A DNA stretch of 64,000 bases. It comes from a virus. Under the pieces are notes generated by a model, which had not been told where the DNA came from, searched no databases, and saw only the letters and a list, made by a program, of their open reading frames with translations. The translations under genes and the position numbers were made by a program. Numbering within the stretch: the stretch's first letter is position 1; each line of letters begins with the position of its first letter. Shown in pieces: positions 2,640 through 28,102 of the stretch. Location: IMG/VR virus record IMGVR_UViG_3300045988_083782. One strand, given 5' to 3'.

Positions 2640-3443
2640 TTAATCCTCTTCCTCTACATCATCATTAAACAAACGGGAAATACTCCGCAGTTTGTGTGCA
2701 GCATCTCCTGTGGTTAAACATTCACCTCTGCCGATATAAATATCTTGTTTGGTTTCTGTATATTTAACTGAAGCAGATGCTCCCATACAGGGATCTACGT
2801 AGAATTTAGCAGCTCTGAATTTGAACATCCAGAATCTAAACATCCACGAAGATACTGAAGTTAGAATTAATGGTTTAATTAGAGTTTCCTCTGGCTTCTT
2901 TACCATTACTTCTACATGCAACAAGTCAATATCTTCACCTCTATAGGATCCAACGTTTTTAGTATCTGTATAAACAGAAATACCAATTCTATAACCTTGA
3001 TCCTCTAGATAATCAACAAGTCGCATTACTGTATAAGCTCTGATCATTAATGATTCAGAGCTACACCAGGAATTTTCACAAATACAAACATGTAAATTAA
3101 TAAACTTACCTTGTCCAGCACCGTGATTTCGTATACGTTTTTTCATGGCAGGCATCCGTTCTAAGAACCGATCATAATTCATATCATCGCCATCAAATTC
3201 GTCATACTTATATTTCTTTCTTGAACCTCCAAGAAATAAATCTTCTTCGATTTTCTTAAGATTATCTAGACCTTCTTTGTAAGAAAACTTACTTTCTAGA
3301 ATCTTTTCTCTAGATAGACCTACCCATTCTGGATCGTTTCGTCTATCCATTTCTTCCCATATATTCAGTCGACCGGTTTCTTCAACTTTGTCGGCTTCAA
3401 TATAGAACTGTTCTACACTTGGTAACTTAATAGATAAATTCAT
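2640..3443 (-). CDS. hypothetical protein translationally coupled to the upstream AAA+ ATPase
   Basis: 267-aa ORF whose start overlaps the stop of the 3443-4732 gene. Confidence 0.5.
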   Translation of the reverse strand: MNLSIKLPSVEQFYIEADKVEETGRLNIWEEMDRRNDPEWVGLSREKILESKFSYKEGLDNLKKIEEDLFLGGSRKKYKYDEFDGDDMNYDRFLERMPAMKKRIRNHGAGQGKFINLHVCICENSWCSSESLMIRAYTVMRLVDYLEDQGYRIGISVYTDTKNVGSYRGEDIDLLHVEVMVKKPEETLIKPLILTSVSSWMFRFWMFKFRAAKFYVDPCMGASASVKYTETKQDIYIGRGECLTTGDAAHKLRSISRLFNDDVEEED

Positions 3444-13138: not shown

Positions 13139-13675
13139 TTACTCCTTCAATCCGAGTGACCGGTAATATTCGTCGTTGTTCGTTACAAGAATTTTGTTGA
13201 TGTCGTCATAAGCCGAAGACCAGCCAACAATCTCTTCCAAGAGATCATCTGCTTTCTTCTTCTCGATCTTGTTCAGCTTAGTAACAACATCAGTCAGGCG
13301 ATTGAGATCCCGGAAGAACGTAGTTTCCTTGGTATCTTCCATTTTCTTAATAGCAGCCGTAACGGTTTCCATAGATACTTCTTTAAACTCACACGGAGCA
13401 AGCGGGAACTGCAAGGTAGTATCACCATTCAGAGTAATAACCATACCGTTTTCATCCGGAAGTGGATCGAGTTTAGCAGAAGTAATGTCAATCATTTTGA
13501 TTGAATATTTCCGTAAGGGCTTAGTAAGCCGTAAGAGACCTTCACGTACTTTGTCATTGTGACTCAGGTCCATATTGTCAGCTTCGATGCAACACAAAGT
13601 TTGACCAATAAGATTCCAAGTAGCCAGAATAGCCCGGTACTTGTTCATGTCGAAATTAGAATTGTTAGTTGCCAT
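13139..13675 (-). CDS. hypothetical protein
   Basis: I chose the start at MATNNSNFD (13675). The track ORF extends to 13753. Confidence 0.5.
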   Translation of the reverse strand: MATNNSNFDMNKYRAILATWNLIGQTLCCIEADNMDLSHNDKVREGLLRLTKPLRKYSIKMIDITSAKLDPLPDENGMVITLNGDTTLQFPLAPCEFKEVSMETVTAAIKKMEDTKETTFFRDLNRLTDVVTKLNKIEKKKADDLLEEIVGWSSAYDDINKILVTNNDEYYRSLGLKE

Positions 13676-13753
13676 AATTTTTTGTTCCTTTCTTGATTTA
13701 TACCCTTTTTGATGGGGTGGATTAATAACTAGTTTTACTTTTAAAATTCGCAT

Positions 13754-15763
13754 GTTACTCTTTTCTCTTCAATTCAGTTAGTCTGCTCAGTCTCTTAGAG
13801 CCGCTTTAAAAAAGCTATGAAAGTAGACAGATGGAATTGGTCAATTCAATGACTTAGAGTAACACTACGCATCCAAAATCTGTAAATGTTTGATAATTTT
13901 GGTAATTTCTATTGCCGTAAAAATATCGAAAACAAAAATAAGATATGTAATGTCACTGTATAATAGCTGTGACACATGCCCGGATCAGACCTTCTTTTTA
14001 CTGTAGCTGATCAATCAATACGAAACAGTTTTTTGTGCCTAGTTCATATCACTATTAGATGCAATATAAACAACTTATCATCAATTCAACGAATCTCCAA
14101 GTATATTAGCATTACAACAATCTAAGCGATTGAGGGACTTTTTATCTAAAAGTTGCAAAACTCACAAGCTGTCCGATTTTTCAGGACACCCACTTGACCT
14201 TATCAGGGATTCTTTATTTATAGTACTCGAATACTTAGGATTTCCACCTAATCAGCCTTAATGGAGGCCTCAGCGTTCTCTTACATATAATGTTGCGCAT
14301 TATACTTTACGAGTTTCTTATGTCAGCGTAACGGTTGGTACTCAAAGAGTAAGGAATTACTCAAATTAGTTCTTTACAAATTCATCTATACTCGTAAGTA
14401 TAAACTTCATGCAGGTGATTTACTAACAATACTCTTTAATGCTTTAAGTTAAACATGTTCATTCTCTCCTTATTTGGTATAGCTGTTCGTTTCAGCGTAG
14501 GCACTCTCCAACGAGTTCTTACAATCCTTATGTTACCTCACATACAGGAACGCTCGTCAGGGCAATACACAGAATTGCTTCTGCTTCGTGTCGGCCCCTT
14601 ATGATCTCTTGCTTCGCTTCATACTGGATGTATGCGCTGCTCACTTGAGAAAACTTAGTTAAAGATACTTTGCTTACTTTGTCTGAAATTCATACGTAGT
14701 TCCAGTCCTACGGTCTCGCATTTCCTCTTACAAATATAATCCTTATACTAATCAGATTATACACAATTCAGACTTATTGCGGCCTCAAATCGCAAGTTAA
14801 GATTATATCCCTGTTGCAAAGCACTCTAGGGTTTTATAGTGACATCACTTAACATAGTCACTCTTTGCAGTTAAATACTTCAAATCACTTTGCCCTAATG
14901 GACAATACAGTGTTGCAACTGTAAGTATGAGCTGTAGACACGCAATTTACTTCTCAGACGCTAACTCTAGGTTCACATCATTACGTATAGGTTTGGCACC
15001 TAATCCGGGTAACCTGTCATACACACTATCTAACAACGATAGTCTTGCATATGGGCCATAGCCACTCAGCCATGTCAATTTCTAGTGCTAATTTAACTTC
15101 AAAAATTCTACCTTCAGATGTATTACTTTAAATCTACCTTGTAGACTCACTTCCAATTAAATGATTTCAATCCAACGAGGTGCTATTACTCCTCTTATTA
15201 AACTATATAGACAGTATAGTCTAATATTTCATTAGTCAACGTGATAATACAGAAACACTGTAGTAGTATATGCTTTATGCTCTTACACCTAAGTAAGTGG
15301 GCAAAGGAGGGTTTGGAGCCAATCCTTAGAACGTTAGTCAGTTCATGATTACAAACATCTTTTTTTGTGACCACTCGTGTTATCGTTCCTTCTTGATTTC
15401 ATCTTTGAGTTGATCCACGAACGATTACGGAAGTTAACGATACTCCCTGCTTTGTTTAGTCTCTGCAATCTGCTCACTGCATATCACTGCGTCTTCAGTC
15501 ACCAATCCGGTTCTCACTATGGGTTATGCACGCTCTCCCATTTTCCTATTATATTCTTCATGTAGATAAGTAATCAATCTACTATAATAGGTTATCATAC
15601 TATAGTTATAACTTGTAGTGGTAGCTACTTATTAAACATTTCAGTATCATGTATTACTTATAATCTATCTGCAACTGATCAGGTCTAAACAGAATGTCGT
15701 AGCATTTACGATGCCCTTCGAATGTAATTCTATAGCTCTTATATACCGCTTAATTACTCTCTA
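13754..15763. other. 2-kb ORF-free block, probable structured non-coding RNA or regulatory region
   Basis: Only one ORF of 60 aa or more (15377-15565) occurs in any frame. A 180-nt sample on the minus strand has TAA and TGA as well as TAG in all three frames. Composition is less AT-rich than typical spacers, and many short hairpins are present. Confidence 0.6.
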
Positions 15764-16150
15764 TTAGCGGTCGCCGTTTCTCTTCGGGCTAAGATTTAAT
15801 CCAAGTTGTGGATTAGGAAGCGGCATAAGCCGATTAAGCAATTTTGTTGTCTTAATAGTATTTTCTACATAAACCTCCTTTTCTACTTCTTTTGTTATAT
15901 ACTCTAGACGTGTCTCAACATCTTTTGTTATGGTCACAGTAGCATCTGCGGATGTTTCTCCTACAGTTACTTTGTCAGTTCTGAGATCAATATTCAGAGC
16001 TAGGTTCTTTCCATTGTTAGGTACGTCTACCACACGAGGAATAACCATTTCTCCGGCTTGAACTGCCTGACTTGGGGTAAATGGATCATATCCAATAAAC
16101 CCTCCGAAAATTACTGCAAATGCAGCAATTGCCAAATTTCTGAGCTTCAT
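15764..16150 (-). CDS. secreted or membrane-anchored protein
   Basis: 128-aa ORF with an N-terminal signal/anchor sequence MKLRNLAIAAFAVIFGGFIG. Confidence 0.5.
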   Translation of the reverse strand: MKLRNLAIAAFAVIFGGFIGYDPFTPSQAVQAGEMVIPRVVDVPNNGKNLALNIDLRTDKVTVGETSADATVTITKDVETRLEYITKEVEKEVYVENTIKTTKLLNRLMPLPNPQLGLNLSPKRNGDR

Positions 16151-20162: not shown

Positions 20163-20217
20163 ACGCTTTTCATTTTTATTGATTAAAAATTTAATAATAC
20201 TTTATAGATCAAATAGG

Positions 20218-20442
20218 TCATAAATTTACTGCTCTTCTGCTGACATTAGAAATTATTTCATAAGCTATAAAGGGAGAAATCATCCCTATTCCGTGCAATC
20301 TATGAATTTCTTTTTTAATATCGCAAAGTAATGATAAATCGTCTATAGTGTTACAATAACTATTACTAATACAGCTCATTGCTTTACTAGTAAGATCTCC
20401 TTGTCTATATTTCTTACCATGTTTTTTCTTACCTCTTGCCAT
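20218..20442 (-). CDS. hypothetical basic protein
   Basis: 74-aa ORF. Confidence 0.4.
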   Translation of the reverse strand: MARGKKKHGKKYRQGDLTSKAMSCISNSYCNTIDDLSLLCDIKKEIHRLHGIGMISPFIAYEIISNVSRRAVNL

Positions 20443-20443
20443 A

Positions 20444-20536
20444 TTACATATGATTTAGTAAATCAGTAATGATATACCATTCAATGAATATAACAATACC
20501 TAAAAACAGTAAGATAAGATATTGATACCATTTCAT
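20444..20536 (-). CDS. possible 30-aa transmembrane peptide
   Basis: Reads MKWYQYLILLFLGIVIFIEWYIITDLLNHM. Its stop abuts the next ATG. Confidence 0.3.
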   Translation of the reverse strand: MKWYQYLILLFLGIVIFIEWYIITDLLNHM

Positions 20537-20573
20537 AGTTTCTGTATTATTATGATTTAACAAGTTAAAGGAA

Positions 20574-20639
20574 GGACAAAGGGTGGGATTCGAACCCACC
20601 ATCTCTATTTCTAGCGTATTACCACAATACTACTTTGTC
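20574..20639 (-). ncRNA. truncated tRNA-like RNA 3 (66 nt, no anticodon arm)
   Basis: Acceptor GACAAAG/CTTTGTC pairs 7 of 7, followed by U8 A9. The D-arm is GTAT-TGTGGTA-ATAC and the T-arm is GGTGGG-TTCGAAT-CCCACC. A CTA-GAAA-TAG mini-hairpin replaces the anticodon arm. Confidence 0.45.
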
Positions 20640-20953
20640 TTATTAAGTTCTAATATTTTACAGGGTCGAGAGCTTACAACAACACCTAACCAATTTATTA
20701 CACGCAGGGATATGACGTGGCTTTTTACGGCATTAGCTTAGCCGTTTGACTATTCTCAAGCACTCAGGCGAGTATAGTCAGATACGAAAGTTTTGCCAGT
20801 TATTGGCTTTATTGACCTATTCATTCTCTTCTTATCGCTGTCAAAAACCATAATGCCCCAGGTTTATACCGTTCAAAGATTTAAGAACTTGAAGCACGGT
20901 ATCACACTATCAAAAACTCTAGTTCTATTTCCTTAGTAGCTTTTAATAAAGCG

Positions 20954-21066
20954 TGGAGCATGAGGGGGTCGAACCCTCGTCCAAACGACGAATCAAATGA
21001 CCTAACAGTCAATGTGAATAGGCAGTTAACCAAAACTACCTACTCTAATATAAACAAATACTCTCC
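20954..21066 (-). ncRNA. elongated tRNA-like RNA 4 (113 nt)
   Basis: The T-arm is GAGGG-TTCGACC-CCCTC. Acceptor GGAGAGT/ATGCTCC has 5 Watson-Crick pairs, 1 GU and 1 mismatch. There is a D-like hairpin GGTAG-TTTTGGTTAA-CTGCC, and I found no canonical anticodon arm. Confidence 0.3.
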
Positions 21067-21471
21067 TTGTTACATATGTTAGTCCAAAAAATTATTAATT
21101 AGGGGCACATGTAACTCGCACAAAGCATAGATAATATTCATTTAAGATTTTGAAAATTCTGTCTGTATACGGCGCTCAGAATCCTACTCAAGAGCAGAAG
21201 AGCTATACTCGTAAGGGTACAAAGACCACTCAGACTCAAATTGATTTTGTGCTCCTTTATCGTCATTAGACTAGTATCAGATAATCTCTTATCATACGTA
21301 GTACAAGACCATTGTATTCGATACAAAAAGCGCACATGGCAAATTTTTCTTTACTTACTCTTAGTAGATATATATCTACACATGCTGTTAATTCAGCTAA
21401 TCCTAGGATAACTATGTCTATTTTGGACTTATTGACACTGCCTGCTGATCTCGTTCAATCCAATTCAGATA

Positions 21472-21496
21472 AGTAGCCTCTACAAGAGAGGCTACT
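21472..21496 (-). terminator. 10-bp hairpin downstream of the lipoprotein gene
   Basis: AGTAGCCTCT-ACAAG-AGAGGCTACT lies 28 nt past the stop of 21524-21997. The U-tract is weak. Confidence 0.45.
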
Positions 21497-21523
21497 CGAG
21501 TATTTTAATGTAAATAGTTAATG

Positions 21524-22022: not shown

Positions 22023-22421
22023 AATATAGTTATTTAAACGAAATTCAAAAAGAAGACTACTCTACTTATTTCTAATACTTATTCGTAGATAACCCTTTTC
22101 CTTCTCCTGACCCTATTATAGGGTTGACCGTTGTATAGTCCATAGTACTCTAGCTCACGCTTGTGGCTTCCTTTAGGGGTTTGGTATATTTGTAGTCTTC
22201 GGGGGACTGGTTCACCATTTACTAACATTTAGTTGAGTAAAAAACCTACAGTCTATCTGGCGGAAATCCTGTAGTTCAAAAATTGTAAACTGTAATCCGA
22301 TCATTGATTGCAATTCTGCAAAGCACTTCTACGGTCATACGGATCCATTTTACGGATCTTTTTAGTTGAACGTTTTCGTGCCTGAGCTTTCTGAGAAAGC
22401 TTTGAGCCTGGATATGAGTCC

Positions 22422-23107: not shown

Positions 23108-23493
23108 TTTACATAATATTTAAAATTTTAATGTTAATACTAATTTGATGACGTCTACTATTCTGCACCATAGTAGAATGTTAATAAAGACAACTCTTTG
23201 TCTTGGTATTATGCAGATACCACGTTTGCTACATACACTAACTTATTAAGCATGAAATCTTGTAACTAATTAATCTTAACTCCCACTAAGCACTTTTAAA
23301 GTTATGCAGAAATCACGTGGAAATGAAATCTTACTAACTACCTGATTTTTACGTCCGCACGATCATAAGTATAGATGTAATAACTCTTTGCACGTCACGA
23401 TACATCTACGTGAACAGTGACTGATCTGAGTTTCTAATATACTTACTTACGCCCCACAGGTTTGTCATTTTCTGATGATTTAAAGTAATTTAA

Positions 23494-25773: not shown

Positions 25774-25908
25774 AATATCTGTATATTTATAATTATAAAT
25801 GTTTACAAATAAAAATAGCAATACCTACTTCACAGTAGCATTTGCTATTAAGAGTTCTCCTTCTATCGAGTTAATAAAACGAATACATACAATCACGCTT
25901 GATTGTAG

Positions 25909-25990
25909 TGCTAGTTCAAGGATTCGAACCTCGATGGATTCCTCCACATTCTCAATGAGAATGCGCGTCTACCAATTCCGCCAAACTAGC
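25909..25990 (-). tRNA. type II Leu-like tRNA with non-canonical anticodon loop
   Basis: The 82-nt cloverleaf starts with acceptor GCTAGTT/AACTAGC and discriminator A. The D-arm GGCGGAATTGGTAGACGC is typical of tRNA-Leu. The variable arm is TGGA-GGAA-TCCA and the T-arm is CGAGG-TTCGAAT-CCTTG. The anticodon stem CATTC/GAATG carries loop TCATTGA, giving C33 and a nominal anticodon ATT. That stem can also extend to 7 bp. Confidence 0.55.
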
Positions 25991-26661: not shown

Positions 26662-26685
26662 ATTTTGATAATATTAAATTATAGG
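26662..26685 (-). promoter_or_regulatory. conserved start-proximal motif
   Basis: The sense strand reads CCTATAATTTAATATTATCAAAAT before the ATG. Confidence 0.4.
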
Positions 26686-26693
26686 CTTTCGCC

Positions 26694-26912
26694 TTACCTA
26701 AAGATAGCTTCAAATATACATTTGATTAGAGCGTATACTCCTAATAAAAAAGGAGCAGCACAAATAATTACTGCAAAGGTTTCCCATAGAAGCTCTAATA
26801 TCTCTTCTAGGATAGACTGTTTGTTGTCTTTGTTCTCTTCCATATCACTTTGAATTAAATTGTATTTTACATCTAAAACCTGAACACAAATACACGAGTT
26901 TTCATATATCAT
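26694..26912 (-). CDS. small C-terminally membrane-anchored protein
   Basis: 72-aa ORF. The real start may be the internal MEENKDNK at 26843. Confidence 0.35.
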   Translation of the reverse strand: MIYENSCICVQVLDVKYNLIQSDMEENKDNKQSILEEILELLWETFAVIICAAPFLLGVYALIKCIFEAIFR

Positions 26913-27682
26913 TGTGTTGATATAATAGTTAGATACCTAAAGAAATTTGACACTTATTGTTCAGTTAGTGTCAGACTGTCAAGCACCTCATTAAGCATAT
27001 CGAGGTAATAGCTTATTCCCATCTATACTTGCTTTGGTTAGTTGCTACTAAAGGATGCACTCACAGCGAACCTAACTGTGTCCTTACCATATGGTTTTAC
27101 TATTATAATCTATTAATGTGCATTTTACACCTAAAACTTAAAACTAAAGGAATTCTCTACTCTGGCATTATGACCCTAGGGATCAATGTTGTAGTAGCTA
27201 AGTATTTATGTGGATAGTCCACAACCTTTAGATTCACATAAGAAACTGGTGCCCTCAATGTCTTGGGAAGTTATTGAGTTTTTTAGAGTGAGATACACAT
27301 TAGGCAAAGCTCTCGAGTTTGTACGTGAGAGAGTACACAGATTTATAAAGGTCTTATATGCCCTTTTGACCTATAAATTCAATATAAGGCTTTGTAATTT
27401 CATCAAAAGCCTTTAGAAAACTTCCAGTATTTCACTATGACTGCATTTCACATAGTGTTACTTGAATCTCGCTCAAGTGCAAAGTTCTAATCTCGTAGAA
27501 CACAATATAGACTATTATTCTCTGGTCTATAAGCAGATAGTAACAAGCTCTTCGCTTCGGTGGTCTATGTTACCTAACCACGCTAAGACTTACATAGATT
27601 TTCACTATCGCTTAGTTTTCTATTAAATGATCATGATTATGAAAGTTTAGAGTATATACGCTTTCAACTTTTTAAATGATAC

Positions 27683-27886
27683 TTAATGTAAGAATTTCCA
27701 ATCCCAATTTGTATAAGGTTGAATATCAGCGTAATCATTTTCGTTATTACTTCCTGATACTAATGTATATACATATTCTGGACTGATTTCTTTCAATTCG
27801 GATATCACTTTTTCTCCTATTTGAAAGTTAGGAACTGTCATTATAGGAATGTAAGTAACTAATGATGTTGCTATTGATACTACCAT
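27683..27886 (-). CDS. hypothetical protein
   Basis: 67-aa ORF. Confidence 0.4.
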   Translation of the reverse strand: MVVSIATSLVTYIPIMTVPNFQIGEKVISELKEISPEYVYTLVSGSNNENDYADIQPYTNWDWKFLH

Positions 27887-28102
27887 GATTATATATGATT
27901 TAAATTAAATAAAATCAAATAAATTGGAATTGGAATACTCGTAGGTATCCAAAAAAGTGCTATGTCGACATATAGCTATTGTGAGGAACGTAGAGAACAA
28001 GAGCCATATATTGAGTTGTCAACATTTTTTGCGTTTGTCGATAATGTTAAAAGGTGTGGAGTGAAAGACAGTCTTACCCACTCACTCACACACCTAAATT
28101 TT

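Follow-up and report, generated by a model that had tools for sequence, protein, structure and literature searches.

At about 800 nt, GOLLD (RF01998) is, together with ROOL (RF03087), the closest described counterpart of the locus reported here: like the RNA that we propose, both are large, multi-helix non-coding RNAs carried by phages, with many conserved unpaired nucleotides. ROOL is about 580 nt long (581 nt), and the only bacterial RNAs that exceed it in length and complexity are the ribosomal RNAs, GOLLD and group II introns (PMC5737381). GOLLD and ROOL form RNA-only multimeric assemblies (PMC12286853), which is, by analogy, one possible way in which a large phage RNA might work. Here we describe an interval of about 2 kb without open reading frames (ORFs) in a 64,000-nt stretch of viral DNA, IMG/VR record IMGVR_UViG_3300045988_083782 (the whole stretch is hereafter called the window). 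The interval is probably the locus of a large structured non-coding RNA of several domains, conserved throughout the family Suoliviridae of crAss-like phages. By DNA similarity the window is a crAss-like phage of the Delta group of this family, which is the largest crAss-like group in the human gut (PMC7886860).

GOLLD and ROOL, which occur often in phages and prophages, are in many cases near tRNA-type genes, and the present locus likewise has a transfer-messenger RNA (tmRNA) and tRNAs on the same arm of the genome. It differs from both in that neither covariance model matches it, in that its conserved core, at about 1.65 kb, would be two to three times as long if it is a single RNA, and in that it is hosted by virulent crAss-like phages of Bacteroidota. 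The initial annotation of the window, made from the sequence alone, had proposed a comparison with Rfam that included GOLLD and ROOL. Rfam 15 gave no match in the interval of the window, either at the gathering score or at E-values up to 10, and no match at the gathering score in the interval of ten diverse relatives; the families without a match there comprised GOLLD, ROOL, OLE, HEARO, introns, RNase P, tmRNA and rRNA, which places the RNA outside both families. ARAGORN predicted no tRNA or tmRNA in the interval. Group II and group I introns and RNase P resemble the putative RNA in size class, in their several helical domains and in their invariant unpaired nucleotides, but the locus has no Rfam match to them, no intron-encoded protein and no interrupted host gene, and its location is fixed. 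RAGATH-7, RAGATH-9 and Hatchet RNAs occur on the same strand and the same arm in the window and its relatives and show that this phage lineage is RNA-rich, but they measure 130-210 nt each, lie 6-13 kb away and have no match inside the interval. Fremin et al. (2023) reported 8,495 short structured RNA candidates, with a mean length of 67 nt, from intergenic regions in IMG/VR (PMC10690425). Their data source and type of evidence, covariation in phage intergenic DNA, are the same as ours, but the mean length is different and the text of that paper mentions neither crAss-like phages nor a kilobase-scale element; single hairpins of the locus may be among the 8,495 unnamed candidates. In the papers on crAss-like phages that are open to search we found mention of introns, inteins, recoding and polymerase switching, and none of a non-coding RNA or region in Delta-group or Suoliviridae genomes. 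As judged from these comparisons, the locus is a new class of RNA, family-wide and fixed in a very abundant phage family of the human gut.

The initial annotation had delimited a stretch of 2010 bp (13754-15763) with a single ORF of 62 aa, and our six-frame scan agreed: this is the longest interval without ORFs in the window, and its longest ORF (62 aa) is like that of shuffled sequence (73 +/- 17 aa). The ORF downstream of this stretch (13139-13753, minus strand, 204 aa) begins at an ATG that is missing in close relatives (L008-L010), and the gene most likely starts at the second ATG, at window position 13675, which gives 178 aa as in those relatives. The interval is therefore probably about 2,088 nt long and encloses the stretch first delimited (Table 1). 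Each minus-strand frame contains 58-59 stop codons, including 18-26 TAA and 18-26 TGA, and no frame of at least 110 aa opened in the interval when TAG, TGA or TAA was read as sense, singly or in pairs. The earlier statement that TAG recoding rescues no gene thus extends to the other stop codons and to the interval as a whole; the 180-nt sample on which it was based does have non-TAG stops in all minus-strand frames, although frame 2 has only TGA and no TAA. The G+C content was 0.364, above both the 0.309 of nine ordinary short spacers and the 0.354 of coding sequence, in keeping with the lower AT-richness noted at first, and the absence of repeats and of T-arm-like motifs was also borne out: the interval has no tandem arrays or long repeats, its repeat families consist only of short two-copy matches, and a T-arm motif was found on neither strand.

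The arm had also been described as tightly packed, which is correct in part. In the late arm on the plus strand (29001-64000), frames of at least 150 aa cover 50% of the sequence, and 82% once TAG is read through, whereas TGA read-through has no effect on this coverage. From this pattern the late genes of the window use TAG as a sense codon, so that much of what looks like gaps in the late arm is an artefact of recoding. In the minus-strand arm (1-29000), where the standard code applies, there are three genuine non-coding islands, of which the present interval is the largest.

The interval has the same neighbours in its relatives: it is preceded by a sigma-factor-like gene and two further genes, one of about 460-570 aa and the other of about 120-140 aa, and two genes of about 180 aa follow, with a DNA polymerase gene a few kb beyond them. 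An unannotated gap of 2.05-2.5 kb was found at this syntenic place in all ten GenBank genomes (10/10), which represent the four subfamilies Uncouvirinae, Bearivirinae, Boorivirinae and Loutivirinae, and 33 IMG/VR loci retrieved through a flanking protein have gaps of 2,086-2,196 nt. The check for conservation in crAss-like genomes that had been suggested therefore gave a uniform answer: the gap is syntenic and conserved in every relative examined, amounting to about 20 lineages below 97.5% identity and more than 240 public contigs. A degenerate motif, taken from where the gap is most conserved, matched at least 120 stretches in each of the viral and metagenome collections, and the matches listed were nearly all on contigs of about 50-104 kb from the human gut (in the metagenome collection, on genome-sized contigs only). 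In the collection of bacterial and archaeal genomes, the 5' domain of the RNA (domain A, below) was present at only 6 of 20 motif matches, all six being phage-sized or tiny low-coverage contigs binned into unrelated metagenome-assembled genomes; among these 20 matches, the RNA lay on no real bacterial chromosome.

Sequence divergence indicated that the interval is under purifying selection as nucleic acid and not as protein. DNA identity to three other groups of Uncouvirinae was 58-61% in the interval and 50-57% in the four flanking genes. Mismatch rates in the interval were flat over the three codon phases (0.37-0.44; for example 0.40/0.40/0.37), whereas the flanking genes showed a coding signature, with rates of 0.51-0.64 at third and 0.33-0.40 at second positions. 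Among near-identical relatives, the core had 0.4-1.15 differing sites per 100 nt, whereas the adjacent 497-aa gene had 2.5-4.4 and flanking DNA as many as 32, and the interval was among the least diverged segments in close relatives. In positions counted along the sense strand (p = 1 at window position 15763; window coordinate = 15764 - p), the conservation profile defined a core from about 71 to 1725. Conserved blocks fill nearly all of the interval, without obvious spacer-like breaks, and are interleaved with lineage-specific insertions and deletions, as is usual for variable peripheral stems.

These data bear on the idea, raised in part in the initial annotation, that the interval is a decayed protein gene, a gene in an unusual code or a degenerate self-splicing intron. 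TAG recoding and group I introns are known from Delta-group crAss-like phages (PMC7886860), and the late arm of the window is itself TAG-recoded. However, none of the recodings opened a frame, stop codons occur in all frames of the approximately 20 lineages, and the flat mismatch phases stand against the third-position excess in the neighbouring genes and, like the purifying selection, do not fit a degraded gene. No intron model matched in any lineage tested, and in every lineage the flanking ORFs are intact, distinct genes. We find an origin of this kind hardly credible.

Evidence for RNA structure came from covariation. Compensatory changes are visible by eye (for example AUGGG...CCCAU in place of GUGGG...CCCAC). 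We modelled three sub-domains of the core, at its 5' end (A), in the middle (B) and at its 3' end (C), separately, and used as a control the same structures with the pairing partners shifted by 1-3 columns (slid control). The model of domain A (R1), seeded with 9 lineages and 21 pairs, gave 93 matches of 66-149 bits, with exactly one full-length match per locus; on 49 distinct sequences, 95.5% of the positions were paired (35-54% in the slid control), both sides changed in 18 of the 21 pairs, and the covariation score was 0.515 (at most 0.10 in the controls). The model of domain B (R3) was seeded from five Uncouvirinae only and recovered 65 loci from all lineages, with 94.8% paired (26-43% slid), changes on both sides in 31 of 47 pairs and a covariation score of 0.322 (at most 0.07 in the controls). 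The model of domain C (R2) gave 48 matches and is recognisable in Uncouvirinae-like and Loutivirinae-like lineages, with 97.1% paired (33-49% slid), both sides changed in 26 of 36 pairs and a score of 0.491 (at most 0.10). The observed covariation of the three domains was reached in 0 of 500 shuffles.

The same alignments carry information on the strand. At paired positions, G-U or U-G combinations were far more frequent than A-C or C-A combinations, with counts of 61 and 0 in domain A, 196 and 7 in domain B and 91 and 8 in domain C (348 and 15 in sum), and the RNAalifold energy was -454 for the sense and -404 for the antisense strand. Because G-U is tolerated and A-C avoided, the folded molecule has the polarity of the minus strand, as the flanking genes do. 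On this comparative evidence, the alignments show that a structured RNA exists at the locus and reads from the minus strand, and the leading suggestion of the initial annotation, one or more large structured RNAs, has thus gained controlled covariation in three domains, validation in independent groups of sequences (below) and a strand-specific G-U signal.

The strand bias also argues against an element that acts as double-stranded DNA, such as a replication origin, a packaging site, a genome end or a non-autonomous mobile element with inverted repeats. Such an element would agree with a long non-coding stretch in the arm of the replication genes, with a motif of about 16 nt that is inverted at both edges, and with the 'TTATCA' motifs conserved in the 3' part. 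But the 348 G-U combinations against 15 A-C point to a single-stranded molecule of one polarity, and double-stranded DNA has no need of compensatory changes in more than 100 short helices. Iterons, tandem arrays, terminal repeats and long inverted repeats are absent, the G+C content is above that of spacers, and GC skew, with inflections near 29 kb and 56 kb, is monotonic across the interval. All lineages have the element in this one position and never elsewhere, so it is not mobile. A DNA-level element, including the replication origin and the genome end first considered, is therefore very improbable.

Several observations weigh against the reading of the locus as a large multi-domain RNA. 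Covariance-model alignments lean towards the structure of the model, and we therefore made a conservative, structure-blind test, in which 20 non-redundant full-length copies were aligned with plain MAFFT, an RNAalifold structure was derived from six rows and this structure was scored in the other 14. In favour of the proposed RNA, it was 63% paired in both independent groups, compared with 35-42% at every slide from -3 to +3, and 23 helices with 133 pairs, between sense positions 117 and 1722, were individually validated in this alignment. An all-against-all helix search in a global alignment of 17 sequences found 71 helices, compared with 6-21 under the null, and was too noisy to define a structure. 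Single-sequence folding energy was no better than that of shuffled sequences (z = -0.97 and -0.22 for the sense and -1.79 for the antisense strand); low folding energy is not a defining requirement for a structured non-coding RNA. A scan for promoters and terminators of the E. coli type, which is unsuited to Bacteroidota or to phage polymerases, gave counts at chance level. The flanking proteins had no PHROG, Pfam or PDB-sequence match, and the neighbours gave no functional lead. Domain C was not recognisable in Boorivirinae or cr6_1, where it has diverged or been replaced. Domain B is closed by its own terminal helix, and the long-range helices that would link the domains are conserved and nearly invariant, and hence beyond the support of covariation. 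One long-range helix that appeared early in the analysis (269-273:825-828) was dropped, as it is incompatible with the helix that closes domain B, for which the support is better.

The self-closed domain B and the lack of a long-range helix backed by covariation would agree with a tightly linked cluster of several independent structured RNAs, each of about 100-250 nt. Domain A is a row of local hairpins, modules are lost or replaced by lineage (domain C as above and part of domain B in cr4_1 and L116), and several separate small RNA genes, with sizes like those of the RAGATH and Hatchet RNAs, lie on the same arm. On the other hand, every module occurs once per genome and never by itself at another site, and neither the order nor, to any great extent, the spacing of the modules varies: there is one match per locus for each of the domains A, B and C, which are colinear in all lineages, with 506-658 nt from A to B and 1416-1603 nt from A to C. 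The total length is kept at 2.05-2.5 kb throughout the family, the conserved blocks lack obvious spacer-like breaks, and no conserved promoter-like or terminator-like signals were found between the modules in the E. coli-type scan. We thus consider a cluster rather unlikely, and it is a main risk to our finding. The same features, that is, modules that are never apart, fixed order and spacing, constant length and the lack of breaks or internal signals, lead us to favour a single RNA. That a single molecule takes in the entire conserved core, of about 1.65 kb and perhaps as much as 1.9 kb, is quite possible, rather than probable.

Within the putative RNA, invariant unpaired stretches occur throughout, such as GAGAACCG, AAACACG and UAGUGU. 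The most conserved hairpin, GAUUAGGUGCCAAACCUA, has a second copy, GAUUAGGUGGAAAUCCUA, about 750 nt downstream, and the two conserved hairpin modules have the form GAUUAGGUG...CCUA. Just 5' of the core lies the motif TATATAAGAGCTATAG, which may serve as a promoter, as a terminator or as the binding site of a protein. It is weakly enriched in the window (10 matches, 4.3 +/- 2.2 expected), and an inverted copy with two mismatches at 13805-13820 (plus strand) forms with it a pair that brackets the RNA, both copies lying beside an AAGCGG element. A terminal stem between these inverted edge motifs was rejected, being inconsistent across lineages by eye, with the 5' copy missing in one lineage. Some Uncouvirinae and cr6_1 (L011, L012, L027 and L040) have, towards the 3' end of the RNA, an extra conserved module of about 85 nt (at about columns 2930-3025 of alignment A2), which is not in the window; it contains CUGAUGAG and GAAA and recalls a hammerhead core, and no Rfam ribozyme model matched it. 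In another IMG/VR locus (L059, IMGVR_UViG_3300045988_037133), the RNA copy is about 96% identical to cr4_1 (Loutivirinae) over one part and about 80% identical to Uncouvirinae over the rest, a mosaic which suggests recombination between subfamilies inside the RNA locus.

A further explanation is that the interval is a cis-acting, giant structured spacer or leader of a polycistronic mRNA, which governs the processing, stability or translation of the flanking genes. It lies on the same strand as both neighbours, no terminator is recognisable before or after it, and conserved hairpins are found at the upstream stop codon and just ahead of the downstream start codon. The former (Table 1) appears by eye in other lineages with a different sequence (UCGCA/UGCGA, AGUGG/CCACU and UACGG/CCGUA). 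Between the core and the downstream gene, the small hairpin with a UUGAAU loop is followed by a second one at about 13693-13706 (minus strand) and then by repeated AAUCAA, with compensatory changes in all lineages. These two small hairpins, 5' of the 178-aa gene, are probably control elements of that gene and may not belong to the RNA. A cis element is, however, difficult to reconcile with a core that measures 1.65 kb and has dozens of conserved helices as well as many unpaired nucleotides that never vary; the bacterial or phage leaders known to us are all far smaller. The flanking proteins also evolve much faster than the RNA, which would be unusual for a mere regulator of their genes. A purely cis-acting function is thus improbable.

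The divergence of the neighbours is apparent from the searches with their proteins. By tblastn, the 497-aa protein was found in Uncouvirinae and Bearivirinae only, whereas blastn still matched patches of the gap DNA in Loutivirinae and Boorivirinae, where tblastn missed this protein. Distant loci were not retrieved through alignment of a flanking protein, because the proteins are too divergent. The 497-aa protein has a Lys/Glu/Pro-rich region of 149 residues that is predicted to be disordered; its AlphaFold model was poor (predicted local distance difference test, pLDDT, 56.7) and had no Foldseek match (best E-value 0.33). Paralogy between the two 178-aa genes was not detectable.

If the large multi-domain RNA that we favour is real, its domains would form one long transcript of about 1.65-1.9 kb, made with or alongside the neighbouring genes, and this RNA, or an RNA-protein particle, might act in trans in the early to middle phase of infection, like other large RNAs of phages such as GOLLD and ROOL. 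As a leading but speculative guess, its target would be host or phage RNA and the translation machinery, which it might take over or protect; it may also be a self-assembling scaffold or a ribozyme. We guess at such a role because the same arm carries a tmRNA, tRNAs, Hatchet and RAGATH RNAs and the late genes switch code. Since the locus is fixed in every sampled member of Suoliviridae and changes at a lower rate than the neighbouring proteins, the phage would seem to depend on it. Should the core be a single RNA, it would exceed in size every other conserved structured non-coding RNA known from phages or bacteria, ribosomal RNA excepted; it would be two to three times as large as GOLLD and be encoded by the most numerous crAss-like family of the human gut. 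Such a size, together with the repeated hairpins and the unpaired nucleotides that do not vary, would be fitting for a ribozyme or for a self-assembling machine, of RNA or of RNA and protein, for host takeover. Outside the ribosome, large RNAs with an intricate fold are rare, and unusual biochemistry has tended to emerge from the classes that are known. Current annotation leaves the locus blank. The RNA would be a target for structure determination and, given a Suoliviridae phage in culture, for genetics, and a sensitive nucleic-acid marker for Suoliviridae. The crAss-like phages look unusually rich in RNA, and other long unannotated stretches of phage genomes may hide large RNA genes.

Table 1. 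Features of the RNA locus and of the minus-strand arm in the window
Feature	Position	Strand	Basis or remark
Whole ORF-free interval between the 128-aa and 178-aa genes, 2,088 nt	13676..15763	-	ORF scans and start codons of relatives
Conserved structured RNA core, about 1.65 kb (putative)	14039..15693	-	Conservation profile and validated RNAalifold structure
Domain A: four covarying helices, then invariant GAGAACCG	15506..15649	-	Model R1
Domain B: self-closed, multi-helix, contains the most conserved core hairpin	14932..15080	-	Model R3
Domain C: series of five hairpins	14038..14200	-	Model R2
Near-invariant core hairpin GGAUUAGGUGCCAAACCUAUACGUAAU; motif used for retrieval of homologues	14980..15006	-	
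Second copy of the core hairpin module, GAUUAGGUGGAAAUCCUA, kept in all lineages	14236..14253	-	Direct repeat D5, alignment A7 consensus
Motif TATATAAGAGCTATAG, 16 nt, just 5' of the core	15730..15745	-	Weak enrichment
Hairpin ACCGCU...AGCGGU straddling the stop codon of the upstream gene	15745..15771	-	By eye (sequence, alignment A7), no statistics
Small hairpin, UUGAAU loop, between core and downstream gene	13840..13853	-	Pairing of 100% in each of three lineage groups, with four pairs compensatory
Upstream flanking gene, 128 aa, always adjoins the RNA	15764..16150	-	No known family
Downstream flanking gene, 178 aa (second ATG), always adjoins the RNA	13139..13675	-	No known family
Further ORF-free island, holds RNA genes	20163-21523	- (arm)	
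tRNA-like element	20575-20639	-	
Permuted tmRNA, predicted tag peptide GKTFVSDYTRLSA	20665-21045	-	ARAGORN
RAGATH-9	22050-22210	-	Rfam
Hatchet ribozyme	23340-23479	-	Rfam
Further ORF-free island, 1,300 nt, holds the RNA gene RAGATH-7	26662-27961	- (arm)	
RAGATH-7	26948-27146	-	Rfam

The permuted tmRNA predicted by ARAGORN scored 36.3 bits with the Rfam model tmRNA_permuted, under the gathering score of 47; the model gave 48.6 bits in a relative (L012, 1267-1592), where the tmRNA adjoins RAGATH-9. The relatives have a tRNA-Leu or tRNA-Arg 1-1.5 kb downstream of the gap, and in the window ARAGORN also predicted a tRNA-Asn with the unusual anticodon ATT at 25908-25990 (minus strand). RAGATH-7 accounts for only a small part of the 1,300 nt of its ORF-free island.

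Outside Suoliviridae, a comparable gap is absent from ΦcrAss001 (Steigviridae), in which two of the RNA models found no match. Its largest unannotated stretch, of about 900 nt (L185, 42965-43871; 95964-96870 of the record), adjoins the TROVE (Ro60-like) gene Gp96. Ro proteins bind Y RNAs, and the stretch beside Gp96 may therefore encode a partner RNA.

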